From: Candidatus Methylomirabilota bacterium
GTDB lineage: Bacteria; Methylomirabilota; Methylomirabilia; Rokubacteriales; CSP1-6
Assembly: GCA_036397135.1 (NCBI GenBank)
Contig: DASWJN010000069.1
Coordinates: forward strand, 1,500 to 65,499
Length of the DNA: 64,000 nucleotides
Direction of reading: 5' to 3'
This document shows, piece after piece, positions 15,097-55,363 of this stretch. The stretch's first letter is position 1, and each line of letters begins with the position of its first letter. Under the pieces are notes generated by a model. That model did not search any database. It saw nothing but the letters and a program-made list of their open reading frames with translations, and was not told the DNA's origin. The position numbers were made by a program, and so were the translations under genes.

Positions 15097-15117
15097 GGCG
15101 CTGAGGGAGGAGGCGCC

Positions 15118-16032
15118 GTGTCGGCGTTCCTGGTGCGGCGCCTCCTTCGGTTCGTCGTCGTCTGCATCGGCGTCTCCCTCGTCACCTTCGCCATCCTCCA
15201 CGCCAGCGGCGACCCGGTGGCCTTGATCATGCCGGAGGCGCCCGAGGCCGATCGCGCCATGCTCCGGGAGGCGCTGGGACTCTCCGATCCGCTGCCGACG
15301 CAGTTCGTCCGCTTCGTCGCCAACGCGACGCGTGGCGACTTCGGCAACTCGTTCTTCCACCGCGAGCCGGCGTTCGCCCTCGTCATCGAGCGCATGCCGA
15401 CGACGCTCGCGCTCACCTGCCTCGCCGTCCTGCTGGCGCTCGCGGTCGCCCTGCCCGTCGGCATCTACAGCGCCGTGCGGCGCAACACGCTCCTGGACCA
15501 CGTGGCGACGGTGGTCGTCTTCCTCGGGCAGTCCATGCCGGTGTTCTGGATCGGCATCATGCTCATGCTGCTCTTCGCGGTGCAGTGGCGGCTGCTGCCG
15601 GTCTCCGGCTGGGAGTCGTGGGCGTCGATGGTGCTGCCGGCGGTGACCCTGGGCGCCTTCACCATGCCGCTGTTCATGCGGCTCGTTCGCTCTAGCATGC
15701 TGGAGGTCATCAACCTCGACTACGTGCGGACGGCCCGGGCCAAGGGGGTGTCGGAATGGCTGGTGGTCTGCCGCCACGCGCTGCGGAACGCGGCGCTGCC
15801 GATCGTCACCGTGATCGGCCTGCAGTTCGGGCTCCTGCTCGGCGGGGCCGTGCTGACGGAGACGGTGTTCGCGGTCCCCGGCGTCGGGCGCCTGATCGTC
15901 GGGGCGATCCGGCAGCTCGATTTTCCGATCGTGCAGGCCGGCGTGTTCCTGCTCGCGATCATCATCGTGACCGTCAACTTCCTGGTGGACGTGCTGTACG
16001 TCTACCTGAACCCGACGATCCGGCTGCGCTGA
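15118..16032 (+). CDS. ABC transporter permease (DppB/OppB-like)
   Basis: GTG start after GAGGGAGGAGG. Six TM segments with the EAA-like motif region. Confidence 0.85.
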   Translation: MSAFLVRRLLRFVVVCIGVSLVTFAILHASGDPVALIMPEAPEADRAMLREALGLSDPLPTQFVRFVANATRGDFGNSFFHREPAFALVIERMPTTLALTCLAVLLALAVALPVGIYSAVRRNTLLDHVATVVVFLGQSMPVFWIGIMLMLLFAVQWRLLPVSGWESWASMVLPAVTLGAFTMPLFMRLVRSSMLEVINLDYVRTARAKGVSEWLVVCRHALRNAALPIVTVIGLQFGLLLGGAVLTETVFAVPGVGRLIVGAIRQLDFPIVQAGVFLLAIIIVTVNFLVDVLYVYLNPTIRLR

Positions 16033-17168: not shown

Positions 17169-18593
17169 ATGACCGTCCCCCTGCGGTTGAGCGAGGGCGA
17201 CGCCCGGACGTTGCTCTTGATCCAGGCCATCGATGACACGGACCAGGAGGGCGTGCTGCTGCCACCGCGGACGCGTGCCGCGGCGACCCGTCGCGCGTTC
17301 GACGATCTGTCGCGGCCCACCGACGACCTCGCGCGGCTGAGCAAACGCGCATCCCTCCTGCAGGACGACCTGCTGCGTGAGGCACCGGCCCTCAGGCGTG
17401 TGCTGCACCCACCACGGTTGCGAGGGGCCTTCGTCCTCGCGACGATCGCGGTGGCCGCGGTCGCCGGCGCGTCGACGAACGTCTTCGGCCCCGAGCGTCA
17501 CGTGAGCGTGCTGGCCTTTCCACTTGCCGGCATCCTCGCGTGGAACCTCGCCGTCTACGCCGCCCTCGTCGCCCGGGCGGTCGCCCGCACGGTGGCACGC
17601 TCGCGGGGGACGGGCCCGACGCGCAGTCGTCTTGCGCTCCTGGGGCGGTGGCTGGAAGGCGCGTGGCTGTCAGGCCTCGCGCGCCGGCTGGGCGCGAGCG
17701 CGCGATCGGTCGCGGTGACCGAGGCCGTCCGGCGATTCCAGCAGCTGTGGCTCCCGACGGCCGCGCCGCTGGTCGCGGCGCGCGCGCGGACCGTGCTCCA
17801 CCTCGCCGCGCTCGCGATGGCGCTGGGCGCGGCCGTCGGGATGTACGTGTCGGGCATCGCCTTCGAGTACCGCGCGACCTGGGAGAGCACCTGGCTGGAT
17901 GCCCCGGCGGTGCAGCGATATCTCGACGTGGCGCTCGGGCCGGCGGCGCGCGTGCTGGGCATGCCGGTTCCGGACGTTGCTCCCCTGCGCGGCCCCGCCG
18001 GCGAGGGGAGCGCGGCGCCCTGGATCCACCTCTGGGGGACGACCCTGGGCGTCTTCGTCCTGATCCCGCGGGCGGCGCTGGCCCTCCTCGACGCCCTGAC
18101 CGCCGCGCGTCTCTCGCGGCGGTTGCCGGTCCACGTCGACGCCGGTTACGTCCGGCGCGCGCTCCACAGCGGTCGTGGGGCGGCGACGCTCGTGGAGATC
18201 GTCTACTACAGCTGCCGTCCGGACACGGGTCTGCGCGAGCGGCTGCACACGACGCTCCAGGAGGAGGTCGGCGCGCGCGCCGTGATCCGCGATGGCGCGC
18301 ACCTGGACTACGGCGACGGACCCGAACGCGTCGCGGTGCCCGACGACACGTCGCGCTCGGGCCTGATCGTGCCGGTGTTCACCCTGGCCCAGACCCCGGA
18401 GCCCGAGGTGCATGGCGAGTTCGTGGAGCGCCTGCGGGACCGCCTCGACCGGGCGGGCGTCCGGATGCTGGTGGTCCTCGAGACGGCGACGTACCGGCAG
18501 CGCGTCGGCTCGGAGGACCGCGTGCGCGAGCGGCGGGCGACGTGGGATCGCCTGCTGCGCGATCTGCAACTGATCGCGATCGACCTCGCGTAG
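17169..18593 (+). CDS. DUF2868 domain-containing membrane protein
   Basis: 474 aa. An N-terminal soluble region, then several TM helices (FVLATIAVAAVAGA, LAFPLAGILAWNLAVYAAL, LHLAALAMALGAAVGMYV, LWGTTLGVFVLIP). It pairs with the downstream GTPase. Confidence 0.65.
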   Translation: MTVPLRLSEGDARTLLLIQAIDDTDQEGVLLPPRTRAAATRRAFDDLSRPTDDLARLSKRASLLQDDLLREAPALRRVLHPPRLRGAFVLATIAVAAVAGASTNVFGPERHVSVLAFPLAGILAWNLAVYAALVARAVARTVARSRGTGPTRSRLALLGRWLEGAWLSGLARRLGASARSVAVTEAVRRFQQLWLPTAAPLVAARARTVLHLAALAMALGAAVGMYVSGIAFEYRATWESTWLDAPAVQRYLDVALGPAARVLGMPVPDVAPLRGPAGEGSAAPWIHLWGTTLGVFVLIPRAALALLDALTAARLSRRLPVHVDAGYVRRALHSGRGAATLVEIVYYSCRPDTGLRERLHTTLQEEVGARAVIRDGAHLDYGDGPERVAVPDDTSRSGLIVPVFTLAQTPEPEVHGEFVERLRDRLDRAGVRMLVVLETATYRQRVGSEDRVRERRATWDRLLRDLQLIAIDLA

Positions 18594-18596
18594 CCC

Positions 18597-20066
18597 GTGA
18601 CGACGGTGACGCTCAGCCTCATCTCGCACACCAACGCCGGCAAGACGACGCTCGCCCGCACGCTGCTGCGCCGCGACGTCGGCGAGGTGCGAGACGAGCC
18701 CCACGTGACGACGGTCGCGGAGGCGCACGTGCTGATCGAGACCGACGCCGCCCGCCTCCTGCTCTGGGACACGCCGGGCTTCGGGGACACCGTGCGGCTG
18801 ATGACGCGTCTCCGCCACGAGGGCGACCCGATCGGCTGGGTCCTGCACCAGGCGTGGGACCGGGTGCTCAACCGCCCCCTCTGGTGCAGCCAGGAAGCGG
18901 TGCGCAACGTCCGGGACGAGGCGGACGTCGTCCTCTATCTGGTGAACGCGACCGAGGATCCCGAGGCGGCCGGGTACACGAAGCACGAACTCGAGCTGCT
19001 GTCGTGGATGAACCGTCCCGTCCTGGTCGTCCTGAACCAGGTCGGGGCGGAGAACGCCCGCCGAACGGTGGAGCACTGGCGCAGTCACCTCGCGTCGTTC
19101 GAGATCGTCCGCGGGGTGCTCTCGCTCGACGCGTTCAGCCGCGCGTGGGTGGAAGAGAGCCTCGTGCTCGAACGCGTGGTGGGCCTGCTCGACGGCGAGA
19201 AGCGGAACGCGATGGTCGGCCTCCTGCGGGCCTGGAACGACCGGAACCTGCGCATCTTCGACGCTTCGATCGAGGCGATCGCGCAGTATCTCGCGGGGAT
19301 CGGGGTCGACCGCGAGCCCATCGGGTCAGCGTCGAGCGCGGGAGCCTCCTGGATGGGCGAGCGACTCGCCGATCTTCGCGCGCTGTCCCGCGTCGACCGC
19401 GAGCGTGCCATGGGCGCCCTGTTCGACCGGGTGCAGGCGGCCACCCGACGGCTGATGGATCGGCTGATCGAGCTGCATCAGCTCTCGGGCGCGAGCCGGG
19501 CCCAGGTCGAGCGCCGCCTCGAGGACGCCACGGTCCAGGGCCACGCGGCGATCAATCCGACGACGGGAGCGATCGCCGGGGGGGCCGTCAGCGGCCTGCT
19601 GGCCGGCCTCGGCGCCGACGTCCTGGCGGGAGGGCTCTCGCTCGGCGGCGGCGCCATCGTAGGGGCGATGCTCGGCGCGCTCGGAGGCTACGCGTTCGGG
19701 GGCGCCTACAAGCTCGCCACGGGCGGTGAATCGGGCATCCAGTTCCAGCCGGCCGCGCTGGACCGTCTCGCGCGCGAGGCCGTGATGCGCTATCTCCTGG
19801 TCGCCCATCATGGCCGCGGTCGCGGCGACTACGCCGACCTCGAGTATCCGGCGCACTGGGCGGCCGACGTCGACGCCGAGGTCGCGCGGCGGCGCGACGC
19901 GTTGCACGCGGCCTGGCGCCAGGCCGCGCGAGGCGGCAGTGGATCAGCCCCGGTGGTGGCCGACCGCCTCCGGCTTGTGCTGCGCGAGATCATACGCGAC
20001 GTGCTCCGGCGGCGGTTCCCCGCCGCGGCGGTCCTGTCCGACGATCACGCCGAGCTCGCCCCCTGA
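18597..20066 (+). CDS. DUF3482 domain-containing GTPase
   Basis: GTG 18597. P-loop LISHTNAGKTTL, switch II DTPGFGD and NQVG (NKxD-like). A C-terminal Gly-rich hydrophobic segment GAIAGGAVSGLLAGLGADVLAGG. Confidence 0.7.
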   Translation: MTTVTLSLISHTNAGKTTLARTLLRRDVGEVRDEPHVTTVAEAHVLIETDAARLLLWDTPGFGDTVRLMTRLRHEGDPIGWVLHQAWDRVLNRPLWCSQEAVRNVRDEADVVLYLVNATEDPEAAGYTKHELELLSWMNRPVLVVLNQVGAENARRTVEHWRSHLASFEIVRGVLSLDAFSRAWVEESLVLERVVGLLDGEKRNAMVGLLRAWNDRNLRIFDASIEAIAQYLAGIGVDREPIGSASSAGASWMGERLADLRALSRVDRERAMGALFDRVQAATRRLMDRLIELHQLSGASRAQVERRLEDATVQGHAAINPTTGAIAGGAVSGLLAGLGADVLAGGLSLGGGAIVGAMLGALGGYAFGGAYKLATGGESGIQFQPAALDRLAREAVMRYLLVAHHGRGRGDYADLEYPAHWAADVDAEVARRRDALHAAWRQAARGGSGSAPVVADRLRLVLREIIRDVLRRRFPAAAVLSDDHAELAP

Positions 20067-20104: not shown

Positions 20105-21982
20105 TCATCGGGCCTCGGTGGCCTCGACGAGCAGCTCGGCCAGGCGGCGGCTGAACCCGGCGGGGTCGGGCAGCGTGCCCCCCTCGGCGAGGATGGCCTG
20201 GCCGTGGAGCAGCTCGGCGTAGCGCTTGAGGCGCTCGTCGCCGGGGTGCGCGGCGTGGAACGCCTGCAGGCGCGTCACCAGCGGGTGCGCGGGGTTCAGC
20301 TCGAGCACGCGCTTGACCTTCGGCACCTCCTGGCCGCTGCGGCGGAGCATCTCCTCGAGGTGCGGGCTGAGGTCGCCGGTCTCGCCGACCAGGCAGGCGG
20401 GTGACGAGGTCAGGCGGCCCGACAGCCGCACGTCGCGGACGTCGTCCTGCAGCGCCGCCCGCAGGGCCAGCAGCAGATCCTTGAGGCGCTCGCCCGTCTC
20501 CTCGCGCGCCGTCTCCTCCTGCTTCTGCTCCGCCTCGGTGCCGAGCTCGACGGCGCCGCTGGCCACCGAGACGAGCTTCTTGCCCTCGACCTCGCGCGGC
20601 AGGCGCAGCCAGAGCTCGTCGATCGGGTCGAGGAAGAAGAGCACCTCGTAGCCGCGCGCGCGGAAGGCCTCCAGATGGGGCGAGCGCTCGGCGGTCTCGC
20701 GGGCGGGGGCCGTCACGTAATAGATGGCGGGCTGCGCCTCCTTCATGCGGCTGACGTAGTCGCCGAGCGAGGTGGGCGTGGGCCCGTCGGTCGACGGCGC
20801 CAGGACCAGCTCCAGGAGCTTGTCGTGGCCCTCCTCGAAGGCCACGAGCCCCTCCTTCAGCACCGCGCCGAACTCGGTCCAGAACGTCCGGTACTTCTCC
20901 GGCCGCTGCTCCTTCATCTCCTTGAGAGCGCCCAGGATCCGGCGCACGAGGTGCTTCCGGATCGCCTGGACCTGGCGGTCCTTCTGGAGGATCTCGCGCG
21001 AGACGTTCAGCGAGAGGTCGTCGGAGGACACGACGCCGCGCACGAAGCGCAGGTGGGCGGGCAGGAGGTCCCGCCAGTCGTCCATGATGAAGACGCGCTT
21101 GACGTAGAGCGACAGCCCGCGGTGGCCGCCATCACGGTGGTGGAGGTCGAAGGGCGCCTTCGCGGGGATGTAGAGCAGGGCGCGCGCCTCGAGCCCCCCT
21201 TCCATGTGCACGCTCAGGTGCTCGAGGGGGTCGTTCCAGTCGTGGCTGATGTGCTTGTAGAACTCCCGGTGCTCGGCCTCGGTGACCTCGTCCTTGCCCC
21301 GCGCCCAGATCGCCTTCATCGAGTTGAGCGTCTCGCCCTTGAGGCGGATGGGGTAGGAGACGAAGTCGGAGTAGCGCTTGACGATGTCCTTCAGCACCCG
21401 CTCCTGGGTGTAGTCCTGGAGCCCGTCCTCCTCGTCCTTCGGCTTGAGGTGCAGGGTGACGGTGGTCCCGGCGCCCGGCCGGTCGGCCGGGCCGAGCGTG
21501 TAGCCGCCGGCGCCGGTGGATTCCCAGCGCGTGGCCTCCTCCGTGCCCGCCCGTCGCGTGACGACCGTGATGTGGTCGGCCACCATGAAGCTCGAGTAGA
21601 AGCCGACCCCGAACTGCCCGATCAGCTCGGGGGCGGCGGCGGCCTGGGCCTCGCGGACGGCCCGGAGGAACTCGCGGGTGCCGGAGCGCGCGATCGTGCC
21701 GAGGTTCTCGACGACCTCCTCCCGGCTCATGCCGATGCCGTTGTCGCGCACGGCCAGGGTGCGGGCCTCCGGGTCGACCTCCAGCGCGATCTCCAGCTCC
21801 CCGATCGGCGCCAGCTCCGGCCGGCTCACCGCCTCGAAGCGGACCTTGTCGAGAGCGTCGGAGGCGTTGGAGACCAGCTCGCGCAGGAAGATGTCCTTGT
21901 GCGAGTAGAGGGAGTGGATCATGAGGTCCAGCAGCTCGCGGACCTCCGTCTGGAACTCGTGGCGCTCGGCCTGGTCGCTCAT
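20105..21982 (-). CDS. htpG: molecular chaperone HtpG (Hsp90)
   Basis: MSDQAERHEFQTEVRELLDLMIHSLYSHKDIFLRELVSNASDALDKVRF..., the canonical HATPase N-domain through the C-terminal dimerisation domain. The ATG overlaps the upstream amidase stop (ATGA). Confidence 0.95.
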   Translation of the reverse strand: MSDQAERHEFQTEVRELLDLMIHSLYSHKDIFLRELVSNASDALDKVRFEAVSRPELAPIGELEIALEVDPEARTLAVRDNGIGMSREEVVENLGTIARSGTREFLRAVREAQAAAAPELIGQFGVGFYSSFMVADHITVVTRRAGTEEATRWESTGAGGYTLGPADRPGAGTTVTLHLKPKDEEDGLQDYTQERVLKDIVKRYSDFVSYPIRLKGETLNSMKAIWARGKDEVTEAEHREFYKHISHDWNDPLEHLSVHMEGGLEARALLYIPAKAPFDLHHRDGGHRGLSLYVKRVFIMDDWRDLLPAHLRFVRGVVSSDDLSLNVSREILQKDRQVQAIRKHLVRRILGALKEMKEQRPEKYRTFWTEFGAVLKEGLVAFEEGHDKLLELVLAPSTDGPTPTSLGDYVSRMKEAQPAIYYVTAPARETAERSPHLEAFRARGYEVLFFLDPIDELWLRLPREVEGKKLVSVASGAVELGTEAEQKQEETAREETGERLKDLLLALRAALQDDVRDVRLSGRLTSSPACLVGETGDLSPHLEEMLRRSGQEVPKVKRVLELNPAHPLVTRLQAFHAAHPGDERLKRYAELLHGQAILAEGGTLPDPAGFSRRLAELLVEATEAR

Positions 21983-23643
21983 ACCGGGACTCCTGCCGTC
22001 CTCCCTGTGGATGGTGGAAAGCTGAAGACGTTCGCGGGTTCGTGGTGGAGGGCGTGGTCGCGGCGGAGGCGTTGCACCATGCCCAGCGCGAACGGCGCTC
22101 CTTCCAGGAGCTGGGCCAGCATCAGCTCGTCGAGCATCAGGCCCGCGCGCCGGGCGGCCTTCGTGCACAGATCGCGCGTCTCCGCGTCGACATGATCGAC
22201 GCGCTCCGACAGCACGGGCGGCGGCGTGACGGGCGGTGCCGTGGCGCCGCGCCCGAGCGGCGGCCGGCGCCCGTGCCACTCGGTGGCCCGCTCGTAGGCG
22301 TGGCCGATGCGGAGGATCGTGGGCTCGTCGAACGGCCGGCCGACGATCTGCATGCCGAGCGGCAGGCCGTTGCGCCCGACGCCGTTGGGGAGCGCGAGCA
22401 CCGGCTGGCCGGTGACGTTCCAGGCGGTGAGCAGGCTCGGCTTCTGCCAGAACGAGACGCTGCGGTAGTCGGCCAGCCGCGGCGCCTCGCCCAGGCCCGC
22501 GGTGACGAACGCGTCGAACCTGGAATAGAGCGGCTCCATCTCCACCATCATCCGGCGATGCTCACGCGTGGCCTGCACGTAGTCGCCGGCCGTGAACAGC
22601 ACGGACGGCAGCACGCGCGCGCGGAAGTCGGCGCCGAAGTCCTTGGGCCGCGCGATGAGATTCTTCTCGTGGACGCTGAAGATCTCGCTCTCGGCGATGA
22701 TGATCTTGACGTCGAAGTAACTCGCCAGTGGCCGCACGCGGCACTCCTCCAGCTCGGCCCCCAGCCGGCGCAGGACGTCGAGCGCGGCGTCCATGGCCCG
22801 GCGCACGTCCTCGGAGGCCGGGATGTCCTCCTCCCAGTGGTGCCGCAGCACGCCGATCCTGAGGCCACGCAGGTCCTCGCCGAGGGCGTCGCGATACGAC
22901 GGGATCGGCCGCCGCAGGCTTCCCGCGTCCCGGGGGTCGTAGCCGGCCAGCGCCTGCAGCACGAGCGCGCAGTCCTCGACGGTCCGCGCCAGCGGCCCGC
23001 AGTGGTCGAACGTGTACGAGTTGGTGATGACACCCGCCCGGCTCACCAGGCCGGACGTCGGCACGAGGCCGACGACGCCGCAATGCGACGCGGGACCGCG
23101 GATCGATCCGCCGGTGTCGGAGCCGAGCGCCACCGGGACCAGGCCGGCCGCCAGGGCGGCTCCTGACCCGCTCGACGAGCCTCCGGTGAAGTGGGCGAGG
23201 TTCCACGGGTTGCGCGCCGGAGGCCAGGGCAGATCGAACGAGGGGCCCGCGTGCGCCATCTCGTGCGTGGCCAGCTTGCCGAGCAGCACCGCGCCGGCCT
23301 CGTAGAGCTTGCGCGTCGCGGTGGCGTCCTCCGCGGGAACCCGGTCGATGAAGACGCGCGAGTGGCCGGAGGTGAGAATGCCCTTCGTGTCGTAGATGTC
23401 CTTGAGCGCGAACGGGATCCCGTGCAGGGCGCCCCGGTACTTGCCGGCCGCGATCTCGGCCTCGGCCTCCCTGGCCTGCCGCCGGGCCAGGTCGAACGTG
23501 GGCGTGATGAAGGCGTGCGTCTGCGCACCGTCCTGCTCGGCGCGCCGGATCAGCACGTCGACCAGCTCCACGGGCGAGAGCCGCCGCGCGGAGATCAAGC
23601 CGGCCAGGTCGACGATCGACAGGTCGTGGAGTTCAGCGGTCAT
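21979..23643 (-). CDS. amidase signature family enzyme (GatA-like) with ~80-aa C-terminal GatC/AtzG-like extension
   Basis: ATG (RC 23641-23643) encoding MTAELHDLSIVDLAGLISARRLSPVELVDV..., GGSSSGSGAALAAG and FALKD. The ORF continues in-frame, without a stop, through ...RVDHVDAETRDLCTKAARRAGLMLDELMLAQLLEGAPFALGMVQRLRRDHALHHEPANVF to the TGA at 21979-21981. Confidence 0.8.
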   Translation of the reverse strand: MTAELHDLSIVDLAGLISARRLSPVELVDVLIRRAEQDGAQTHAFITPTFDLARRQAREAEAEIAAGKYRGALHGIPFALKDIYDTKGILTSGHSRVFIDRVPAEDATATRKLYEAGAVLLGKLATHEMAHAGPSFDLPWPPARNPWNLAHFTGGSSSGSGAALAAGLVPVALGSDTGGSIRGPASHCGVVGLVPTSGLVSRAGVITNSYTFDHCGPLARTVEDCALVLQALAGYDPRDAGSLRRPIPSYRDALGEDLRGLRIGVLRHHWEEDIPASEDVRRAMDAALDVLRRLGAELEECRVRPLASYFDVKIIIAESEIFSVHEKNLIARPKDFGADFRARVLPSVLFTAGDYVQATREHRRMMVEMEPLYSRFDAFVTAGLGEAPRLADYRSVSFWQKPSLLTAWNVTGQPVLALPNGVGRNGLPLGMQIVGRPFDEPTILRIGHAYERATEWHGRRPPLGRGATAPPVTPPPVLSERVDHVDAETRDLCTKAARRAGLMLDELMLAQLLEGAPFALGMVQRLRRDHALHHEPANVFSFPPSTGRTAGVPV

Positions 23644-25407: not shown

Positions 25408-28400
25408 TCAGCCGAGCCCCGCCTCCCCGGGCGCCGGGCTCACCATGTGGTGCACGGAATAGCGGCTGACCAGCGTCGAGACCTCCCGGAGCGCGTCGAT
25501 CTCCAGATCATTCTTGCCGTGCGAGAACTCGCGCAGCGCCTCCAGCGTCGTCTGCCAGGTCTCGTCGCCGTCGCCGAAGCTCTCCACCAGGTCGGACAGC
25601 CGGTTCGCCGGACCGCCTTCGCGCCCGTGCAGCTCGCGGAACACGCGCTGCGCGAACCGAGGGGCCCCGGTGACCAGCGCCAGCAGCACCTGGACGGCCC
25701 GGAAGTTGCCGGGCCGATCCGGCGTTCCCACGAACCGCGCCAGCGCCGGGTGCGAGAGCGCGGCCTTGTACAGCCGGTAGATGTTCACGAAGCGCTTCAC
25801 GGACCTCGGTGTGCGGGGCATCAGCGGCGCCACCTCGTCCATGAACTGCAGCTCGGCCTCGGTGATCTTCAGGCTCTCGGTGGGCGCGGCCAGCCCCTCG
25901 CCGCCGATGAATTCGTCCTCGCCCTCGGCCTCGGCCGTGGCGCGCTTCGCCGCCGCCCGGGCGGGCGCCTCGGCGGTCGTGCCCTCGGCCGCGCGCGCGG
26001 TCGAACCCGGATCGTCCGCGGGATCGTCGGGCGGCGGAGGCACGGCGGCGACTGGAGCCGGAGCCGTCTCCACCTCCTCCGACGAGATCAGCGCGTGGAT
26101 CAGGCGCCGGACCCCGGCGGGCTCCATGCGGCGCAGCCAGAACGGCACCTGGAAGATCTTTTCCAGGAAGTCCTGGCTCTCGGCGGGCGCGCGCTCCAGC
26201 CCCTCCGGCGTTTCGCCGGACGGGATCGATTCGTCGGCCAGCATGCCCTGGTAGTGCTTGTGGAGGGCCCGCGAGACCCAGCGCGAGTCCACGCCGACCA
26301 CCACGACGAAGAGCGGGAAGAACAGGAGCAGGTGCACGGCCTCGAGCACGCGGACGACCTTCTCCGGGGGGTGGCACCGGTCGAGGTCGTCGATGTAGAG
26401 GACGATCCGATCGATCCGCGGCAGCCCGGGATCGCCCTGGTTCGTCCTCGCCGCCTCCATCAGCGCGGACAGCCGCTCGAAATCTCGGTGGATCATCGCG
26501 ATCAGCCCGAGATGCTTGTCGTAGTCGGCGCTCGAGGTGCGCTCCCGGATGAAACGTCCGAGGCGCGCCTGGGACGTCGAGTCGCGCACGACCTCGGCGG
26601 CCTGCCGCTCTGCCTCCGCCGCCTGCTCCTGCTCACGCCGCGCCTGCTCGAGCCGGGCCCGGGCCTCCTGCTCGTTCGCCAACGCCGCCTCCCGGTCCTT
26701 CTCGAACGCCCGGAGGTCCTTGCTGCGCGCCTCCTCGATCCGTCGCGTGACGTTCGCCTGCAGGGCCGACAGCCGGTCGAACACCGTGCTGGCTCCGGCG
26801 AGACGTGAGCGAGCCCAGGCGACCGCCGCCCCGAGCACGGTGAGGGCCTCGCCGACCACGGTCCACAGGTGCGCCCAGCCCTCGGGCAGCTCCTGCCACT
26901 GGGCCACTCCGAAGACCATCATCGGAATCGCCACCAGCATGGCGACCACGATCCAGAAGCCCCGGGTGGTGTGCAGCCGGGCCCCGCTCAGCACGCGCCA
27001 CCAGAACCCCGCCCGTGACGCGAGCGCTCGCGCTTCGTCGAGCAACGCCTGGGCGTCGGCCACGGTCGCCTCGCCCGACCCCAGGCGGTCCGCCGCCGTC
27101 CTGAACTCCGGCCGTCCCGACCACTCCGCCGCCGACCTCATGAGCTCGATCAGCGTGGCGCGATCGGTGCCGGCGACGTCGGCGACGCTCTCCCCGAGGA
27201 TCTTCCGCAGCTCCGCGTCCGACGGCGGCGGTGGCGGAGGCAGCCGCGCGAGCTGCCGCTCGGCCTCCGCGACCTTCTGGCGCGCCTCCCCATGGCGCTT
27301 CTCGGCGTCCTCGAGCCGCTGCTCCGCTTCCTTGCGCAGCTCGCGGACGATCTCCAGCCGGTTGAGCAGGCGGTTGAAGTCGTCGGCGTCGTTCTGGCGC
27401 CCGTCGAGGAAGATGCACAGCTGGCTGAAGATCGTGCTGACCAGGCTGGCCCACAGGTTCGTTTCCGTGTAGTGCCAGGCGTTGAAGCGTATCTGAGAGA
27501 TCCGCGGCCAGTAGAGCGGCACCGTCGCGTCCTGTGCCTGCGAGAGCTGCTCGATCCTGTCGTAGAGGCGGTCCATGAAGAACGTCTTGCCCGAACCCCA
27601 GTCGCCGAACAGGCCGATCGACAGCGGTGGCGTGAGGTTGCGCGAGGCCATCACCCGCGCGAAGGCGTCCACGTAGCGGTCGACCTGGAGGCGGTCGCGG
27701 GTGCCGCCCGTGTCGGCGTCGAAGCGGGCGATCCACTGGCGCCGCTCGAGGTCCGGCAACCGGTCATCGCCCAGGCCGTGCGCGTGCCGGGCCCATGCGC
27801 GCGGCCACGCCTCCTCGAGCCGCTGGGTCACGGTCGAGTCCAGGGCGACGCCGCCGGAGGGGCTGGACCAGACGGTCGAGTCGCCCGTCTCCTCGATCAG
27901 GCGCGGCAGGTCGAGAAACGGCTCACGGGACAGGGCCGTCCAGCGGACGTCGACCAGGAACGACGTGCGGCCCCGATGGCTCTCGGCGGGGTCCCAGTGC
28001 GGTCCTTCCACGACGCTGCCGTGGACCTCGCCCACGCCGACCAGACCCCGCGGTTCCGGTCCCTGGCGGACGAGGAAGACGCGCTCGCCCCGCGACATCG
28101 TGCGGCGGGTCCCGGTGCTCCAGCGCACGACCGTCGAGCCGTCCTCCCGGACCTCCTGCGCGCGGCCCTCCAGCTCGGGGAAGGGGAACCGCGCCGGGTT
28201 CCAGGTGAACAGGTACGCCGCCGCGGCCGGCTTGTCCTCGGCCGGCAGCGGAACGCCGGCGCCCCGCCACCACCGTTGCCAGGCATCCGGCGTGCGGCGC
28301 TGGTCGCTGGACCGGAGGAAGTTGAGCCACTCGCGACGGAGCGTGTCGACATCCGAGCCCGCCGCGCGCGCGATCTCGGGCAGCGACGGGTCGTCCTTGG

Positions 28401-28758
28401 CGAGCAACGCCAGGGTCACGTAGTCGCGTCCCCACACCGTTTTCTTGTCGCCCAGGAAGCCCTCGGCGACCGAGAACGAGTCCGCCAGGGGTTTGCTCAG
28501 CGGCATCGCCGCGAGATCGGGCGGCGGCACGTCGGTCGTCTTCACGTCCGGTCGGCTCGGCAGCGGCAGCAGGGAGGCAAGCTTCACGAAGGCGGCGGAG
28601 CGATCGGTCCGCGCCACGCGCAACGCCCCCTCGAGCAGATGGCCGGCGCTGAGCGGCCGGCCGCCCGCCAGCGCCCACGCCCGGTGGAGCGCCTTCTGGA
28701 CGTGGGCTTCCAGCTGGAACTGCGTGAAATTGACGACGACGGCGGTGAGCGCTGGCAT
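25408..28758 (-). CDS. KAP family P-loop NTPase with N-terminal Clp_N-like double repeat and EVE/PUA-like domain (1116 aa)
   Basis: ATG (RC 28756-28758) after GGGAG. Clp_N-like repeats at aa 1-150 (LSAGHLLEGALRVAR; VTLALLAKDDPSLPEIARAAG). An EVE-like region at aa ~181-320 (YLFTWNP...GERVFLVRQGPEPRGLVGVGEV...FLVDVRWTALSREPFLDLPRL). Walker A LFGDWGSGKT. TM helices inserted in the NTPase domain (FWIVVAMLVAIPMMVFGVAQW, WTVVGEALTVLGAAVAWA), the KAP hallmark. Walker B IVLYIDDLDRC. The rest of the 1817-aa track ORF is antisense of hyuA. Confidence 0.8.
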   Translation of the reverse strand: MPALTAVVVNFTQFQLEAHVQKALHRAWALAGGRPLSAGHLLEGALRVARTDRSAAFVKLASLLPLPSRPDVKTTDVPPPDLAAMPLSKPLADSFSVAEGFLGDKKTVWGRDYVTLALLAKDDPSLPEIARAAGSDVDTLRREWLNFLRSSDQRRTPDAWQRWWRGAGVPLPAEDKPAAAAYLFTWNPARFPFPELEGRAQEVREDGSTVVRWSTGTRRTMSRGERVFLVRQGPEPRGLVGVGEVHGSVVEGPHWDPAESHRGRTSFLVDVRWTALSREPFLDLPRLIEETGDSTVWSSPSGGVALDSTVTQRLEEAWPRAWARHAHGLGDDRLPDLERRQWIARFDADTGGTRDRLQVDRYVDAFARVMASRNLTPPLSIGLFGDWGSGKTFFMDRLYDRIEQLSQAQDATVPLYWPRISQIRFNAWHYTETNLWASLVSTIFSQLCIFLDGRQNDADDFNRLLNRLEIVRELRKEAEQRLEDAEKRHGEARQKVAEAERQLARLPPPPPPSDAELRKILGESVADVAGTDRATLIELMRSAAEWSGRPEFRTAADRLGSGEATVADAQALLDEARALASRAGFWWRVLSGARLHTTRGFWIVVAMLVAIPMMVFGVAQWQELPEGWAHLWTVVGEALTVLGAAVAWARSRLAGASTVFDRLSALQANVTRRIEEARSKDLRAFEKDREAALANEQEARARLEQARREQEQAAEAERQAAEVVRDSTSQARLGRFIRERTSSADYDKHLGLIAMIHRDFERLSALMEAARTNQGDPGLPRIDRIVLYIDDLDRCHPPEKVVRVLEAVHLLLFFPLFVVVVGVDSRWVSRALHKHYQGMLADESIPSGETPEGLERAPAESQDFLEKIFQVPFWLRRMEPAGVRRLIHALISSEEVETAPAPVAAVPPPPDDPADDPGSTARAAEGTTAEAPARAAAKRATAEAEGEDEFIGGEGLAAPTESLKITEAELQFMDEVAPLMPRTPRSVKRFVNIYRLYKAALSHPALARFVGTPDRPGNFRAVQVLLALVTGAPRFAQRVFRELHGREGGPANRLSDLVESFGDGDETWQTTLEALREFSHGKNDLEIDALREVSTLVSRYSVHHMVSPAPGEAGLG

Positions 28759-28884
28759 GGCGACTCCCGGATCCCTGGAGCGAGGCTGGCCCAGCGGCGG
28801 CCGGACTGTCAAGAGGCAAAGGTGCGGTCGAGCCTGGCGGCGCGCGATTGACTTCGCCCGGCCGTCGCGGTACAGCAACGAGCT

Positions 28885-30993
28885 GTGACTCCGGGTCGGA
28901 CCCTGCTCGTCGGTGTGGATGTCGGCGGCACCTTCACGGACCTCGTGCTGTTCGACGAGGCGACCGGCGCCGTGCGGGTGGCCAAGGTGCCGACGACCGT
29001 GCGCAACCAGGCCGACGGTGTCCTGGCCGCCCTCGCCGGGGCCGGGGCCACGCCCGCCGACCTGAAGATCATCGTGCATGGAACGACGACCGCCACCAAC
29101 GCTCTCCTCGAGCGCAAGGGGGCGAGCACGGGGCTCATCACCACGCGCGGATTCCGCGACGTCCTGGAGCTGGGCCGGCGCACCCGGCCGACGCCCTACG
29201 GGCTCAAGGGCACGTTCGAGGCGTTGATCCCGCGCGAGCTGCGCCTCGAGGTCACCGAACGGCTGGACGCCGAGGGACAGGTGGTGACGCCGCTCGACGA
29301 GGCCGAGGTGCGGCGCGCCGCGGCGTGGCTCCGCGAGCGCGGCGTCGAGGCGCTGGTGATCCACTTCATCCACTCGTACGTCAACGACGCGCACGAACGC
29401 CGGGCTCGCGAGGTGGCCGCCGCCGTGTGGCCGAACGCGTATCTCACCGTGGGGGCGGAGCTGCTGCCCGAGTACCGGGAGTTCGAGCGCGGGACGACGG
29501 CCGCCATCAACGGCTTCGTCCAGCCGGTGATCGACCGTTACCTGCGCCGGCTGGCCGGTGAGCTGGCCGGCCAGGGCTACCAGCACGAATTGCTCGTGAT
29601 GCAGGGCAACGGCGGCACGATGTCCGTCGACGTGGCCGCGCGTCACGCCGTCAACACGCTCATGTCGGGACCGGCGGCCGGCGTGAAGGCCGCCGCCTTC
29701 ACCGCGCTCGCCGCCGGCCACGGCAACGCGATCTCGTGCGACATGGGTGGCACGAGCTTCGACGTCGGCGTGATCGTGGGCGGCGCGCCGGCGGTCAGCG
29801 CCGACAAGGAGATGGGCTACGGCCTGCCCGTGCGCGTGCCGATGATCGACATCCACACCATCGGCGCCGGCGGCGGCTCGATCGCCCGGGTGTCGAGCGC
29901 GGGGATTCTCCAGGTCGGGCCGGAGAGCGCGGGGGCCGAGCCCGGCCCCATCGCCTACGGCCGCGGCGGCCAGGAGCCCACGATCACCGACGCCAACCTG
30001 CTCCTGGGCCGGCTCAACCCCGACGGGCTCCTCGGCGTGGCGGGCGGCGCGCGGCTCGACCGGGTGCGCGAGATCGTCGACAAGAAGATCGGCGCCCACC
30101 TGGCCCTCGACCCGGTGGCCGCGGCCGCGGCGATCGTGCGGGTGGCCAACGACCGGATGGCCGGCGCCATCCGGCTGGTGTCGCTCCAGCGGGGGCGCGA
30201 CCCGCGCGACTTCATCCTGTTCGCCTTCGGGGGCGCGGGGCCGCTGCACGCCGTGGCGCTGGCCCGCGAGCTGGCGATCCCGAAGGTGCTGGTGCCGGCG
30301 CGGCCTGGCATCACCTCGGCCCTGGGCTGCCTGGTGGCCGACGTGCGTCACGACTTCGTGCGGACCATCAACCAGGGGCTCCTGCATCTGGACGTGGCCG
30401 AGGCGCGGTCCATCCTGGCCGCCCAGATCGCCGAGGGGCGCCGCCTGCTCGCCACCGAGGGCGTCGAGGTCGAGACGGTGACCGTCCAGCACGAGGCCGA
30501 CATGCAGTTCGCCGGGCAGACCCATGTGCTCACCGTGCCCATCGCCCGGACGGAGTTCACGCGCGAGGATCTGGCGGAGACGTTCGAGCGCGCCTACCGC
30601 GAGCGCTTCGGCGTGGAACTGCGCGAGATGCGCGCCCTGGTCATGAGCCTGCGCACCGCGGTGATCGGCCGCCGCCGCCCCATCGCGCTGGACGGCCTCG
30701 GCGGAGCCGTGACGGCCGGCGGCCCGATCGGCACCCGCCCGGTATGGTTCGGAACGAGCGACGTTGCGCCAGACCCCCGACGGGGGGGTGTGGGGGGAGC
30801 CGGAGGGGCCCCCCACCAAGAACAAGCCTGGCACGACACGCCGATCTACCGGCGCGAGCACCTGCCCGCCGGCGCGACGCTGGTGGGCCCGGCGATCGTG
30901 GAGCAGCTCGACGCGACCACGGTGATCGAGCCGGGCGATCGGGTGCGCGTGGACGCCCTCGGCAACCTCGAGATCACGGTGAGGGGAGTGTGA
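28885..30993 (+). CDS. hyuA: hydantoinase/oxoprolinase family protein, A (beta) subunit
   Basis: GTG 28885 encoding VTPGRTLLVGVDVGGTFTDLVLFD, the actin-like ATPase N-terminus of HyuA/OplA/acetone carboxylase beta. A possible TTGACT-17-TACAGC promoter lies at 28848-28876. Confidence 0.85.
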   Translation: MTPGRTLLVGVDVGGTFTDLVLFDEATGAVRVAKVPTTVRNQADGVLAALAGAGATPADLKIIVHGTTTATNALLERKGASTGLITTRGFRDVLELGRRTRPTPYGLKGTFEALIPRELRLEVTERLDAEGQVVTPLDEAEVRRAAAWLRERGVEALVIHFIHSYVNDAHERRAREVAAAVWPNAYLTVGAELLPEYREFERGTTAAINGFVQPVIDRYLRRLAGELAGQGYQHELLVMQGNGGTMSVDVAARHAVNTLMSGPAAGVKAAAFTALAAGHGNAISCDMGGTSFDVGVIVGGAPAVSADKEMGYGLPVRVPMIDIHTIGAGGGSIARVSSAGILQVGPESAGAEPGPIAYGRGGQEPTITDANLLLGRLNPDGLLGVAGGARLDRVREIVDKKIGAHLALDPVAAAAAIVRVANDRMAGAIRLVSLQRGRDPRDFILFAFGGAGPLHAVALARELAIPKVLVPARPGITSALGCLVADVRHDFVRTINQGLLHLDVAEARSILAAQIAEGRRLLATEGVEVETVTVQHEADMQFAGQTHVLTVPIARTEFTREDLAETFERAYRERFGVELREMRALVMSLRTAVIGRRRPIALDGLGGAVTAGGPIGTRPVWFGTSDVAPDPRRGGVGGAGGAPHQEQAWHDTPIYRREHLPAGATLVGPAIVEQLDATTVIEPGDRVRVDALGNLEITVRGV

Positions 30994-47423: not shown

Positions 47424-47852
47424 CTAACCCGTGAGCTCGAGCGCCAGCCCCTCGGCCCGAGCGGCGTCGTTCAGCCGCTCGTCGTAGGCCAGGAGACGTA
47501 CTTCCTCGCTCGCCTGCCGGTGGAGGTACAGGCACGACGCGAGCTGAACGGAATCGCCCGCCCGCAGCCGATGTCGTGTCAGCAGCGCAACCGCCTCCCT
47601 GGTGACTTCCTCGTCGAGCTCGATCAGAGCGATCGATCTGATGTCCTCGCGAAGCGAGCTCAACGCCCGGCCGAGGTGACTCGGCGAGAGGCCGCCCTCC
47701 CGGGAACGGCGAGCTAGGCCTGACGCAATCTCGACCTCGGACAGTCGGCTGGTGGCCACGGCCTGGCGCTCGAGGACCGCACGGACGGTGACGCTTCCCG
47801 GCTCGTCGACGTAACGCTTCACCAGCGCGCTGGCGTCGACATAGAGAATCAG
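47424..47852 (-). CDS. vapC: type II toxin VapC (PIN-domain ribonuclease); apparent CTG start in CTGA overlap with antitoxin stop
   Basis: Sequence LILYVDASALVKRYVDEPGS... with the PIN acidic residues D5, E (ELDEE), D (AGDSVQ) and D (AYDERL). The first in-frame ATG/GTG (47822) lies after the essential first Asp, so translation must begin at or before CTG 47850-47852. Confidence 0.7.
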   Translation of the reverse strand: MILYVDASALVKRYVDEPGSVTVRAVLERQAVATSRLSEVEIASGLARRSREGGLSPSHLGRALSSLREDIRSIALIELDEEVTREAVALLTRHRLRAGDSVQLASCLYLHRQASEEVRLLAYDERLNDAARAEGLALELTG

Positions 47853-48154
47853 ACGCGATCCTCCCGGTCCTCGACGATCGCCTCGGACACCGGGCGCCCG
47901 TTCAGTCTGATGGGGCGGAACGGCGCAAGTGGCCCCTTGGACGTCCGGGTCAAGCGGCCGAGGGCGACGAGCCGGTCGATCTCTCCCTGGCTCCCCGACC
48001 CCCCGAGGGAGACGGGCCGCAGCTCGGCCACCGGCTCACCCCGGTCGGTGATGACGATCGTCTGCCCCCTCCGGACCTCGCGGAGGTAGCGACCCAGCCG
48101 GGTCTTCAACTCCCGGACGCCGACCACGTTCTTCTTCGAGTTACGTGAACTCAT
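47849..48154 (-). CDS. vapB: type II antitoxin, Phd/YefM (VapB-type) family
   Basis: 101 aa, MSSRNSKKNVVGVRELKTRLGRYLREVRRGQTIVITDRGEPVAEL, the Phd/YefM fold signature. Upstream of vapC. Confidence 0.8.
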   Translation of the reverse strand: MSSRNSKKNVVGVRELKTRLGRYLREVRRGQTIVITDRGEPVAELRPVSLGGSGSQGEIDRLVALGRLTRTSKGPLAPFRPIRLNGRPVSEAIVEDREDRV

Positions 48155-52948: not shown

Positions 52949-53068
52949 TTACTTCTTGATGCCGTCCACCGTGTTGTCGATCTTCCGGCCGGCCTTTTCC
53001 GCGGGGCCGCTGCCGATCAGCTTGTCCTGCCCGGTGACCTCGTCGACCTTTCCCCCCGCCTTTTGCAT
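52949..53068 (-). CDS. CsbD-like general stress protein (39 aa)
   Basis: MQKAGGKVDEVTGQDKLIGSGPAEKAGRKIDNTVDGIKK, the CsbD KxxG repeat pattern. Confidence 0.5.
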   Translation of the reverse strand: MQKAGGKVDEVTGQDKLIGSGPAEKAGRKIDNTVDGIKK

Positions 53069-53153: not shown

Positions 53154-55316
53154 CTACAGGACCATGTTCTCGGGCGAGTCGAGGACGACCGCGGGAATGC
53201 CGCCCGTGAAGCGCTCCTCGGCCCCCTCCCGTTCCAGCACGTCCCAGTCACGGAAGGATCCGAAGGTCAGATGGGTCTTCGATTCCAGATCTCTGACCCT
53301 CACCTGGACGGCCTTGTACTCGCCGACCTGGAATTCCTCCTCCAGATCCGCGATCAGATCCGCCTGAGACAGCACGAAGGCGGCGGCGGCCGGATCGCCG
53401 GTGTCGCTGGCGAATACGACCACCTTCCAGAACTCCCGAGGGATCTTCACGCCCCGGTGTGGCTCGTCCGACGCCCGGAACACCGGACCGTTGAAGACGC
53501 ACAGCTTCCGCCGGTGCTTCTTCCCCTGCGCGGCGACGTGATCCTCGAGCCGGCCCCACAGCTTGAGGCCCGGCGGAGCCTGCTTCACCTGGCCCTGGTT
53601 GGTGATGGCGTGCTGCGGTGAGCAGTTGGTGAAGTGGAACGTGTCGTCGTTGGCCAGCTTGGCTTCCTGCCTGGTCGCACCCCAGCCAGCGTCGGCCCGG
53701 CGCACCAGGTGGCCGCGGTCGAGCGGATTGCCGGCGTAGAGCCTCTCCCCGGCCTGGAAGGCTCCATTGTCCGAGACCCGCGGGTCGAAGTACCACTTGT
53801 CGCCGTCCTTGTCGCGGGGGTGCTGCACGGGGGCCGTCGGATCGTAGTTCACCGCCGCCAGGAACGCGAGCTTGCGCTCCTTGTTCAGGATCACGCTGAA
53901 GTGGTGGTACTTGAGCTCGAACCGGGCGTCGCCGCGCCGCCCCGGGAGCGCGAACGCTTTCGACGTGACCGCGTTGGTCAGCCGCGGGAAGGGCACGTTG
54001 AACCCGAGGGAGTCCCGTTGATACCCCGGCCGGCGCTCGTAGTCGGGGTCACTCGTGTCCGGCTCCACTTTCTCGAGTTCGACTTCGCTTGAATCCGACG
54101 GTGCCCCGGCCAGGGAGACGGCCACGGCTCCGGCCCCTGGAGTGCCCAACGAGACGGTGATGTGCAGGGGTACGGTCACGGTCACCCTGGCGTCACCGGG
54201 CCTGGAAGGCCCGGGCCCGATCGCCTCCGGCGGCGCCGGCGGCTTCGAATCCAGGAACTCCCTGAGCAGCGGCGCCTCGGCATCCGTCACCTGCGCCCGG
54301 GAGATGAACTCGACGATCCTGGACACCCGGATGCCTTCGTTCGCGACCCAGTCGAGCAGCTCGGGCGGGTCCCCCGTGCGCCACACGGTCCCGTCCTTCC
54401 GCAGCGGCTCGCCGTCGGGGTTCCTCCGGGGCACTCCGCTGTGGTGCAGGGCCACCACCTCCCACTCGTTGTTGAACACCGGCGACCCGGACGACCCCGG
54501 CTCGGTGTCGGCCTCGTAGTGGGCGTGCAGCTCGAGCAGGTCGACCAGCCGGTTCTCCCGGATGATGACCTGCTTCATCTCGCCCTTCGGATGCTGCACG
54601 ATGTTGATGGGCTCCCCGACCACGATCTTGCCTTCCTCCTGGATCATCGGGCACCAGCCGTAGTCGGCCAGCGGCCGGCCGGACCCGCCGGGGGCCACCG
54701 CCACCACGGCGAAGTCGTGCTCCGCGTCGGCGAGGAAGAACGTGCCCGGGGCGAGCTGGAACGCCCGGAGGGCGACCGGCCGGCCGAACCGGTCCCGCTG
54801 GTAGTCGAACTGGACGACGCTGCGGCCGGCGTCGTCGCGCGACCTCAGGACGTGGTGGTTGGTCATCAGCAGCTGCGGGGACACCATGAACCCGGTGCCG
54901 TAGCTGACGCGGCCGTCGCCCAGCTTCGTGACGATCCGGCCGATCGCCCGGCTCGCGTGCACCGCCTGCTCGAGGAACTCGACGAAGAGGAAGTCGCGCG
55001 TCTCGCCGATGACGCGCTCCAGCAGGTGGTCGTCGATGGTGGCGGGCGAGACGGCCGCCCGCGAGATCTGCCGGGCGGTCGACTCCGTGAACTCGCTGGC
55101 GATTTCCTCGGCCGCCTGGGGCGCGGCCTTCCGCAACCTGGCCAGAAGCCGGTTGGCTCGCTTGGCCCGCCGCTCCGGCGTGTCGAGATCGGAGTATTTC
55201 TTGCGCCGCGCCGCCCGCTCGAACCGCGCGTGCGTCTCCTCCCGGGTCCCCCACCGTCTGGCGGCCGCGATCGCGACGTCGAGGTCGAAGGCGTACTCGT
55301 TCCGAGGTGCTGGCAT
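53154..55316 (-). CDS. fusion protein: trypsin-like serine protease domain + DNA/RNA non-specific endonuclease (NucA/Serratia-nuclease family) domain, no signal peptide
   Basis: 720 aa. Protease triad context MTNHHVL (His), DFAVVAV (Asp) and TEPGSSGSPVF (Ser). Nuclease motif NPLDRGHLVRR plus FHFTNCSPQHAITNQG (the Mg-binding Asn). The N-terminus MPAPRNEYAFDLDVAIAAARRWG is not signal-peptide-like. Confidence 0.8.
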   Translation of the reverse strand: MPAPRNEYAFDLDVAIAAARRWGTREETHARFERAARRKKYSDLDTPERRAKRANRLLARLRKAAPQAAEEIASEFTESTARQISRAAVSPATIDDHLLERVIGETRDFLFVEFLEQAVHASRAIGRIVTKLGDGRVSYGTGFMVSPQLLMTNHHVLRSRDDAGRSVVQFDYQRDRFGRPVALRAFQLAPGTFFLADAEHDFAVVAVAPGGSGRPLADYGWCPMIQEEGKIVVGEPINIVQHPKGEMKQVIIRENRLVDLLELHAHYEADTEPGSSGSPVFNNEWEVVALHHSGVPRRNPDGEPLRKDGTVWRTGDPPELLDWVANEGIRVSRIVEFISRAQVTDAEAPLLREFLDSKPPAPPEAIGPGPSRPGDARVTVTVPLHITVSLGTPGAGAVAVSLAGAPSDSSEVELEKVEPDTSDPDYERRPGYQRDSLGFNVPFPRLTNAVTSKAFALPGRRGDARFELKYHHFSVILNKERKLAFLAAVNYDPTAPVQHPRDKDGDKWYFDPRVSDNGAFQAGERLYAGNPLDRGHLVRRADAGWGATRQEAKLANDDTFHFTNCSPQHAITNQGQVKQAPPGLKLWGRLEDHVAAQGKKHRRKLCVFNGPVFRASDEPHRGVKIPREFWKVVVFASDTGDPAAAAFVLSQADLIADLEEEFQVGEYKAVQVRVRDLESKTHLTFGSFRDWDVLEREGAEERFTGGIPAVVLDSPENMVL

Positions 55317-55363
55317 ATCTACCTCACGGCGTGCTTGTTACCATGGTCTGGTCGCCATTCGCA

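Follow-up and report, generated by a model that had tools for sequence, protein, structure and literature searches.

The stretch of DNA examined here (the window) comprises 64,000 nucleotides of contig DASWJN010000069.1 from a Candidatus Methylomirabilota bacterium, and carries at 53154..55316 on the minus strand an open reading frame (ORF) of 720 amino acids plus stop in which a trypsin-fold serine protease is fused to a Serratia-type non-specific nuclease. The gene is a bona fide, probably functional protease-nuclease fusion, and its product is read here, with slightly better than even confidence, as a latent cytoplasmic conflict or death effector of the trypsin-NucA (LypC-like) family, that is, as a two-enzyme zymogen. 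The fusion is a stand-alone Methylomirabilota addition to a kind of protein that was predicted computationally in 2020 and of which one relative was studied experimentally in 2026.

The ORF, taken from an ORF list, is confirmed by Pfam matches to Trypsin_2 and Endonuclease_NS, as proposed in an earlier note on this DNA, and the protein is identical to GenBank HEX9818930.1 from a Methylomirabilota metagenome-assembled genome (MAG), where it is labelled 'DNA/RNA non-specific endonuclease'. Translation starts at an ATG, and a GAGG ribosome-binding site lies 5-8 nt 5' of this codon (55322..55325, minus strand), inside a 94-nt gap that separates the gene from an upstream gene of the proline racemase family. 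No sigma-70-like promoter or terminator was predicted in the gap or around the fusion gene, and an Rfam scan of the window returned zero RNA families. The GC content at third codon positions is 0.92, which is the usual value for genes of this 72 % GC window; a foreign-island signal at the gene was considered and rejected, its GC being merely slightly under that of its neighbours.

An AlphaFold2 model of the full protein, with a mean predicted local distance difference test (pLDDT) score of 78 and a predicted template modelling (pTM) score of 0.51, splits it into four parts (aa 1-95, 96-345, 346-416 and 417-720). The protease part (aa 96-345; 54282..55031, minus strand; Pfam, alignment and AlphaFold2) contains the Trypsin_2 match at aa 140-290 (E=2.6e-23) and includes a helical N-terminal extension with the pattern 'ERVIG.TRDF..VEFLE', of which two helices at aa 96-122 form part. 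Its catalytic triad consists of H155 (in MTNHHVL), D201 (in DFAVV) and S276 (in GSSGSPVF), is invariant in 41 diverse homologues and is kept in 201 of 201 family members. The nearest enzymes by sequence are the V8/Esp/Spl glutamyl-endopeptidase-type enzymes of the S1B group, while the top Foldseek match is the serine-protease domain of FAM111A (E=1.5e-10, TM 0.65), a likeness no better than that to V8 and Esp. HMMER alignment to 1wcz and 1qy6 places T271 at V8 Thr164 and H291 at V8 His184, and both residues are kept in 201/201 members. Thr164 and His184 line the Glu-specific S1 pocket of V8. From these V8-type S1 residues it can reasonably be inferred that the protease prefers acidic P1 residues and cleaves after them, which makes E415 and E660 candidate sites. 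The S1B enzymes (Staphylococcus aureus V8/SspA, Esp, Spl and the exfoliative toxins) have the triad and the S1 residue equivalents in common with the fusion protease, but they are secreted zymogens in which propeptide removal frees the N-terminus, whereas the fusion protease belongs to a multi-domain, presumably cytoplasmic protein without a signal peptide and has its core internally, behind ~135 residues.

The nuclease half (aa 417-720; 53157..54068, minus strand; Pfam and alignment) starts with a conserved pre-domain of ~50 aa ('RPGY..FLGF.VP.P.L'), continues into the Endonuclease_NS beta-beta-alpha-Me core (Pfam match at aa 465-686, E=3.4e-41) and is closed by a conserved C-terminal tail. 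D533, G535, H536, N564 and E591 are invariant in the 41 homologues, and the core also has R534; N564, in 'TNCSPQ', is the Mg ligand of the Serratia Asn119 type, and E591 stands in 'WG.LE'. H536, N564 and E591 are kept in 200 of the 201 members. All the motifs that the earlier note had named for the two enzymes, including NPLDRGHLVRR and the catalytic Asn, are present and invariant among the 41 homologues, and the loss of catalytic residues, which it had named as a ground for refutation, was not seen. This conservation shows both hydrolase centres to be intact and under strong purifying selection.

The best sequence matches of the nuclease in the Protein Data Bank are Anabaena NucA (1zm8, 2o3b) and EndoG. 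The fusion has the D-R-G-H motif, the Mg-binding Asn ('TN..PQ') and the Glu ('WG.LE') in common with NucA, Serratia nuclease and EndoG (PF01223); these enzymes are either secreted or confined to a compartment, and NucA is paired with a dedicated inhibitor, NuiA, whereas the fusion comes with neither a signal peptide nor an inhibitor gene. Unlike them, it also has the ~50-aa pre-domain and an insertion of ~10 aa (aa 573-582 when compared with Anabaena NucA), which follows the Mg-binding Asn and precedes the 'WG.LE' helix, adjoins the active-site finger and coincides with a low-confidence AlphaFold2 loop. The conserved E660 sits in a second low-pLDDT loop, aa 655-664.

The two enzymes are preceded by an N-terminal domain (aa 1-95; 55032..55316, minus strand; alignment and AlphaFold2). 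The extreme N-terminus of the family reads M-x-A-P-x-N-x-Y-A-F-D, with a short strand at aa 6-8, and is followed by a bundle of five helices within aa 12-86; these, with the two helices at 96-122, bear out the helical N-terminal region of the earlier note. W22, R49, R53, R56 and L57 are conserved, the net charge is +6, and members from Planctomycetota, Acidobacteriota, Bacteroidota, Actinomycetota and Proteobacteria share a conserved N-terminus from residue 2 onwards. The domain has no Pfam match and no known fold match, is not of the CARD/Death fold, and is family-specific. The possibility that it is a widely shared effector-associated adaptor was rejected at the sensitivity of a phmmer search of 1.84 billion representatives, which returned 27 matches, all situated N-terminally in family-type or truncated proteins.

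The inter-domain linker (aa 346-416; 54069..54281, minus strand; alignment and AlphaFold2) is rich in Pro, Gly and Ala, varies in length, has pLDDT < 50 and ends in a conserved 'L-E-K-[IV]-x-P-D', with E415 (~90 % conserved) at the linker/nuclease junction. Every member has at least ~50 aa ahead of the protease core and a linker of ~40-160 aa. Within the linker lies the motif 'VTVTVPLHITVSLG' (aa 377-391; 54144..54188, minus strand; alignment), with the alternating, beta-type consensus [ST]-[VI]-T-x-T-[IV]-P-L-x-[IV]-[TS]-[IVLF]-S-L-G, in which P383 and G391 are near-invariant, and which is the top hydrophobicity segment of the whole fusion protein. The N-terminal domain and the linker motif mostly occur together (both in 150 members, neither in 25, mixed in 24), the members counted not being phylogenetically independent. 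An amyloid-like signalling motif common to this linker and adjacent NLRs was also considered; a hidden Markov model (HMM) of the motif, run over the six-frame ORFs of the window and of all related loci, matched family members only, and the candidate was rejected.

The coupling of the two domains has been described before. Jablonska et al. 2017 made the incidental remark that Endonuclease_NS is 'often coupled with' Trypsin_2, and speculated on a virulence role. The NucA-peptidase (NucA-trypsin) system is System 3 of Kaur, Burroughs, Iyer & Aravind 2020 (eLife), a computational prediction in which proteolytic activation was proposed to deploy the nuclease, and some of whose operons contain STAND and bDLD2 components (PMC7159879). 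The trypsin-like peptidase with its triad, the NucA/Endonuclease_NS domain (HNH superfamily) and their union in one chain are all found in the fusion; the optional components of that system (EAD1, a STAND NTPase with bDLD2, an S8 peptidase and transmembrane segments) are absent from the fusion locus.

The single experimentally studied protein of this architecture is LypC of the Caulobacter crescentus LypABC system, which is CARD-NLR-like (Nat Microbiol 2026, PMC13236601). In LypC (ACL94044.1) a linker joins a trypsin-like peptidase (aa 1-335) to a NucA-type endonuclease (aa 354-662); for toxicity LypC depends on both LypA, a CARD-protease, and LypB, which is NLR-like, and it is latent without them. 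The substitution S296A abolishes lysis associated with the gene transfer agent (GTA) and H471A and N505A do not, while deletion of the nuclease domain destabilises LypC (PMC13236601). LypC resembles the fusion in the order of peptidase, flexible linker and NucA domain, and in being cytoplasmic, outside a defence island and, as is proposed for the fusion too, latent unless activated; the likeness rests on architecture and on taxa, the published list of LypC Foldseek homologues covering the same lineages as the fusion family. The two differ in the spacing from the catalytic Ser to the nuclease His (175 aa in LypC, 260 aa in the fusion) and in the linker, which is shorter in LypC; and LypC is encoded with LypA and LypB, whereas no such genes lie within 64 kb of the fusion, nor is there a conserved partner in 80 related loci.

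Similar logic is found in the gated pro-nucleases of the trypsin-MBL (metallo-beta-lactamase) type from Hachiman, AVAST, Lamassu and DRT (Tuck et al. 2025, PMC12799240; 10.1101/2025.11.14.688446), in which a trypsin-like protease is likewise paired with a latent non-specific DNase. There, the nuclease is unmasked by cuts at conserved residues of disordered insertions, and activation of the protease requires oligomerisation (PMC12799240). In those modules the nuclease has the MBL fold and is a separate protein from the protease, which carries a fused sensor (HamA, Avs or LmuA), whereas the fusion has a beta-beta-alpha-Me nuclease on the same chain and no sensor evident; cleavage there follows Ile, and the fusion protease is predicted to prefer acidic P1 residues. 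Set against those modules, the gating candidates in the fusion (model pTM 0.51) are the linker motif with E415, the insertion at 573-582 and the loop at 655-664 with E660. The CARD-NLR systems with non-gasdermin effectors (Wein et al., PMC10312443) parallel the lipase-protease-nuclease triple fusions found among the relatives (see below), but they are three- or four-gene operons enriched beside defence systems, whereas the fusion is a single gene in a metabolic neighbourhood.

No signal peptide or transmembrane segment was found in the fusion protein by a hydropathy scan. Within the first 60 aa, 10-aa hydropathy peaks at 1.01 (family median 0.78), and a value of 2.0 or more is reached in 1 of 120 homologues; the statement of the earlier note that a signal peptide is missing was checked in this way and held, with an h-region-like segment in that one homologue. 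Pfam detected none of the sorting or trafficking domains LXG, WXG, PAAR, Rhs and VgrG. The protein is accordingly predicted, from these sequence features, to be cytoplasmic.

An exported or lysis-released degradative enzyme, leaving the cell by a non-classical route and serving nutrition or antagonism, is improbable. The closest relatives with solved structures are secreted enzymes (V8/Spl/Esp/exfoliative toxins and NucA/Serratia nuclease), the metzincin, lipase and GDSL genes beside the gene in several taxa resemble secreted hydrolase sets, a type I secretion system lies ~3-6 kb away on one Rhizobium plasmid, and there is the virulence role speculated on by Jablonska et al. 2017. Against export, the family has no Sec/Tat signal across diderm and monoderm phyla, its N-terminus and C-terminal tail are conserved and carry no C-terminal domain of the type IX secretion system and no LPXTG, RTX or LXG sorting signal, the neighbouring metallopeptidases and lipases are themselves without signal peptides, and LypC acts intracellularly.

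A polymorphic or contact-dependent interbacterial toxin, made of a nuclease and its releasing peptidase and delivered by a type VI or type VII secretion system (T6SS, T7SS) or similar, is extremely improbable. Polymorphic toxins are known to contain Endonuclease_NS-type domains, and a trypsin-like peptidase can serve as a releasing peptidase. YxiD and Rhs are mentioned in this connection by Jablonska et al. 2017. The fusion, however, has none of the five trafficking domains, and beside its gene there is neither an immunity gene nor a conserved neighbour; proteins built in the same way are found in phyla without T7SS, and conservation runs from end to end with no variable toxin tip.

When 1,108 flank ORFs taken from 80 related loci were clustered all against all, no conserved immunity or partner gene emerged, and the absence of an adjacent NuiA-like immunity gene, as stated in the earlier note, agrees with this lack of any recurrent neighbour. 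Directly downstream of the fusion gene lies a Lys/Gly-rich ORF of 39 aa, 'MQKAGGKVDEVTGQDKLIGSGPAEKAGRKIDNTVDGIKK' (52949-53068, minus strand; called on the identical ENA contig), which the earlier note had described as CsbD-like. The ORF exists, but it has zero Pfam matches even at E<=10, CsbD included, so the label is unsupported; nor is the ORF conserved beside relatives of the fusion gene.

The family is large and scattered. More than 3,200 clusters at 90 % identity match the fusion protein, the top 120 all with the same full-length architecture, and a scan of one genome per species found the family in at least 591 species (~0.3 %) from more than 10 phyla, including Planctomycetota, Acidobacteriota, Alpha-, Beta- and Gammaproteobacteria, Actinomycetota, Cyanobacteria, Bacillota, Chloroflexota, Myxococcota and Bacteroidota. 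It is carried by 139 plasmids, among them those of rhizobia, the Bacillus cereus group, Nostoc and Paenibacillus, and relatives at 64-66 % identity lie in unrelated contexts with no synteny. The distribution shows the gene to be mobile and patchy, with a population biology like that of a conflict gene. Two plasmid copies are broken, one divided by a frameshift that falls right in the linker, leaving a 'serine protease' and an 'endonuclease' ORF, and the other interrupted by an ISNCY transposase (locus L086, 4752-6997, Mesorhizobium huakuii; locus L092, 6800-10670, Rhizobium leguminosarum), which is consistent with a costly, dispensable gene. A phage origin was rejected, as 50,697 phage genomes contained no full-length match and yielded two short nuclease-domain matches at ~26 % identity; the family is also absent from IMG/VR (2.9 million viral contigs). 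Tandem or paralogous copies exist in some genomes: in an uncultured planctomycetote (locus L050), a second, partial paralogue with the linker motif (14134-15537, minus strand) lies a few kb from the main copy.

A housekeeping function in nucleoprotein processing, in which the nuclease would tether the protease to nucleic acids so that, in the manner of FAM111A and SPRTN, it could clear DNA-protein crosslinks or stalled complexes, is very improbable. It is suggested by FAM111A as the top Foldseek match, but that match is no better than those to V8 and Esp, and such a role sits poorly with a gene that is sporadic, plasmid-borne and non-syntenic, and that is not linked to repair genes; nor would a non-specific nuclease whose catalytic site is complete be a likely tether.

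The mechanism proposed for the latent two-enzyme effector is as follows. In the resting state the protease would be inactive, as are isolated trypsin-like defence proteases before oligomerisation, and the nuclease would be restrained in cis by the linker, the N-terminal domain or the insertion near the active site. A trigger would activate the protease either directly or through a STAND/CARD-NLR-type partner encoded elsewhere, probably by oligomerisation. The active protease would then cut after acidic residues, for which E415 at the linker/nuclease junction and E660 are candidate sites, and protease and nuclease together would degrade proteins and nucleic acids of the cell or the invader, leading to arrest or death in the manner of abortive infection or of LypABC-like lysis.

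Several observations weigh against this interpretation. The neighbourhood of the gene is an amino-acid catabolism cluster and not a defence island, with no STAND/NLR, CARD-protease or inhibitor gene within the 64-kb window; PADLOC gave the fusion protein weak matches, to the protease domain only; and at most related loci the neighbours are housekeeping genes and a strong defence-island signal is absent. The nearest solved relatives of both domains are, as noted, secreted enzymes. In the AlphaFold2 model the inter-domain packing is not confident and the linker motif is unplaced, which leaves the geometry of autoinhibition without support from the model. Finally, since the nuclease residues of LypC are dispensable and LypC is inert without LypA and LypB, autonomous action and killing centred on the nuclease are unproven, and the LypC results argue against simple self-activation and against the nuclease as sole killer. 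The conflict or abortive-infection role put forward in the earlier note is plausible in view of the patchy, plasmid-borne, non-syntenic distribution and of the CHAT/STAND/NACHT or patatin neighbours at ~10 % of loci, while the metabolic cluster and the weak PADLOC matches speak against it, and a defence-island search of the kind which that note had suggested showed no strong signal. Its wider interpretation stands as to architecture, intact sites and the lack of an export signal or inhibitor; its protease-gated nuclease model was already proposed in PMC7159879, and the simple form of self-activation is disfavoured by LypC.

Two further readings divide on how the protein would be activated. The first, a tentative possibility, is that the solo form is an autonomous sensor-protease-nuclease suicide module that needs no NLR or other partner; within the family-level reading, fully autonomous self-activation takes a share of roughly a quarter to a third. 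In such a module the N-terminal domain would sense the trigger, the beta-type linker motif would serve as an intramolecular gate or oligomerisation switch, and Glu-directed autocleavage at E415 would free an active non-specific nuclease. If this were true, the module would be a proteolysis-gated nuclease mechanistically unlike both LypABC and the trypsin-MBL modules.

The second, which is unlikely, is a relay that depends on an NLR: the fusion would be a third component, with LypA/LypB-like genes elsewhere in the genome, its protease would act on a downstream lytic factor, the nuclease would be accessory or structural, and there would be no self-activation. The dependence of LypC on LypA and LypB fits such a relay, as do the effects of its protease and nuclease substitutions and of its nuclease-domain deletion, the STAND and bDLD2 components of some NucA-peptidase operons (PMC7159879) and the CHAT-STAND proteins beside some relatives. 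The window, however, holds no partner within 64 kb, ~85-90 % of the related loci are solo, and the nuclease residues are kept in 200/201 members, which speaks for a role of nuclease activity. Nor is an adaptor for hetero-association evident in the N-terminal domain, given that it is not a CARD/Death fold and does not occur in other architectures.

The latent-effector reading, which admits either route of activation, also draws on the neighbours of the related loci (cited below by L-number where coordinates are given). Pfam and PADLOC scans of the 149 immediate neighbours are heterogeneous, with matches to 117 different Pfam families, and at about 10 of ~85 loci the gene stands next to one for a CHAT/STAND/NACHT/NB-ARC, patatin or additional trypsin protein. 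In Rhodococcus a giant CHAT-AAA_16-S8 protein is encoded directly upstream on the same strand (L037, 4081-7803, 1,241 aa; L080, 4852-7803, 984 aa). The L037 protein has CHAT, STAND-like AAA_16 ATPase and subtilase (S8) domains, as found by a domain scan of that copy, and the L080 protein was placed with it by a shared BLASTP cluster; these giants agree with the optional S8/STAND components in the NucA-peptidase operons of Kaur et al. The other conflict-type neighbours are CHAT proteins (L035, L062 and L089), an NB-ARC-TPR protein (L031), a NACHT protein on a Nostoc plasmid, a patatin-like protein (L004) and a second Trypsin_2 protein (L021).

Metallopeptidases and lipases also recur beside the gene. 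M43 metallopeptidases adjoin it at L044 (9960-11189), L057 (10080-11339), L080 (9850-11115) and L052 (9966-10913), directly downstream and Pfam-confirmed at L080 and likewise at the other three; further neighbouring metallopeptidase entries are L083 5216-6631 and L084 984-1892. The metallopeptidase neighbours, which are M43 enzymes in Rhodococcus, Georgenia and Williamsia, two M12 enzymes on a Bacillus thuringiensis plasmid and an M57 enzyme on a Nostoc plasmid, have no signal peptide. On the B. thuringiensis and Nostoc plasmids the fusion gene comes after the M12 or M57 metallopeptidases and lipase-like hydrolases, an alpha/beta-hydrolase in the former and a GDSL-like enzyme in the latter. 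In three marine alphaproteobacterial relatives a PGAP1/LCAT-like lipase (GHSMGG) is fused ahead of the helical-protease-linker-nuclease unit, giving proteins of ~1,200 aa without signal peptides (L028, 6657-10280; L059, 6543-10208; L076, 6648-10280; from a Pseudomonadota MAG, Roseibium and Tropicimonas); the lipase domain was detected by Pfam for L028 and L059 and judged from the sequence for L076. These adjoining or fused lipases and metallopeptidases may form a recurring intracellular set of 'dismantling' enzymes.

In the window itself the fusion gene lies between the proline-racemase-family gene and genes of the DUF1028 and enolase-superfamily kinds, with a molybdenum hydroxylase adjoining. 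An antitoxin of the Phd/YefM type (47424-47822, minus strand, E=5.3e-9) stands directly upstream of a PIN-domain gene (47849-48154, minus strand, E=5.6e-9), and the two look like a VapBC-like pair, ~5 kb from the fusion gene. A KAP-family P-loop NTPase lies ~22 kb from it, in an ORF listed at 1,817 aa (25408-30861, minus strand; KAP at aa 1485-1698, E=3.9e-23). The 5' part of this ORF overlaps a hydantoinase/oxoprolinase gene on the plus strand (28885-30993; Hydantoinase_A, E=1.6e-90), which means that the true NTPase gene is shorter and encodes ~1,150 aa at most. KAP NTPases are often conflict-associated. A gene pair for a DUF2868 protein (17169-20066, plus strand) and a DUF3482 GTPase (MMR_HSR1; 20105-22279, minus strand) adjoins an HtpG/Hsp90 homologue.

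Taken by itself, the fusion gene of this window is an unremarkable addition to its family, filed in GenBank under 'DNA/RNA non-specific endonuclease'. The family to which it belongs places a protease and a non-specific nuclease on one chain in hundreds of species and on many plasmids, mostly without a recognisable sensor or inhibitor, at a time when the gating of death effectors by proteolysis is emerging as a dominant logic of prokaryotic immunity, with eukaryotic parallels in caspase-activated DNase and EndoG. The LypC nuclease looked dispensable for lysis, yet the active site is kept in all but one of the 201 family members. Solving how a cytoplasmic Serratia-type nuclease is silenced and fired in this family would extend the LypC finding and test the computational prediction of 2020.

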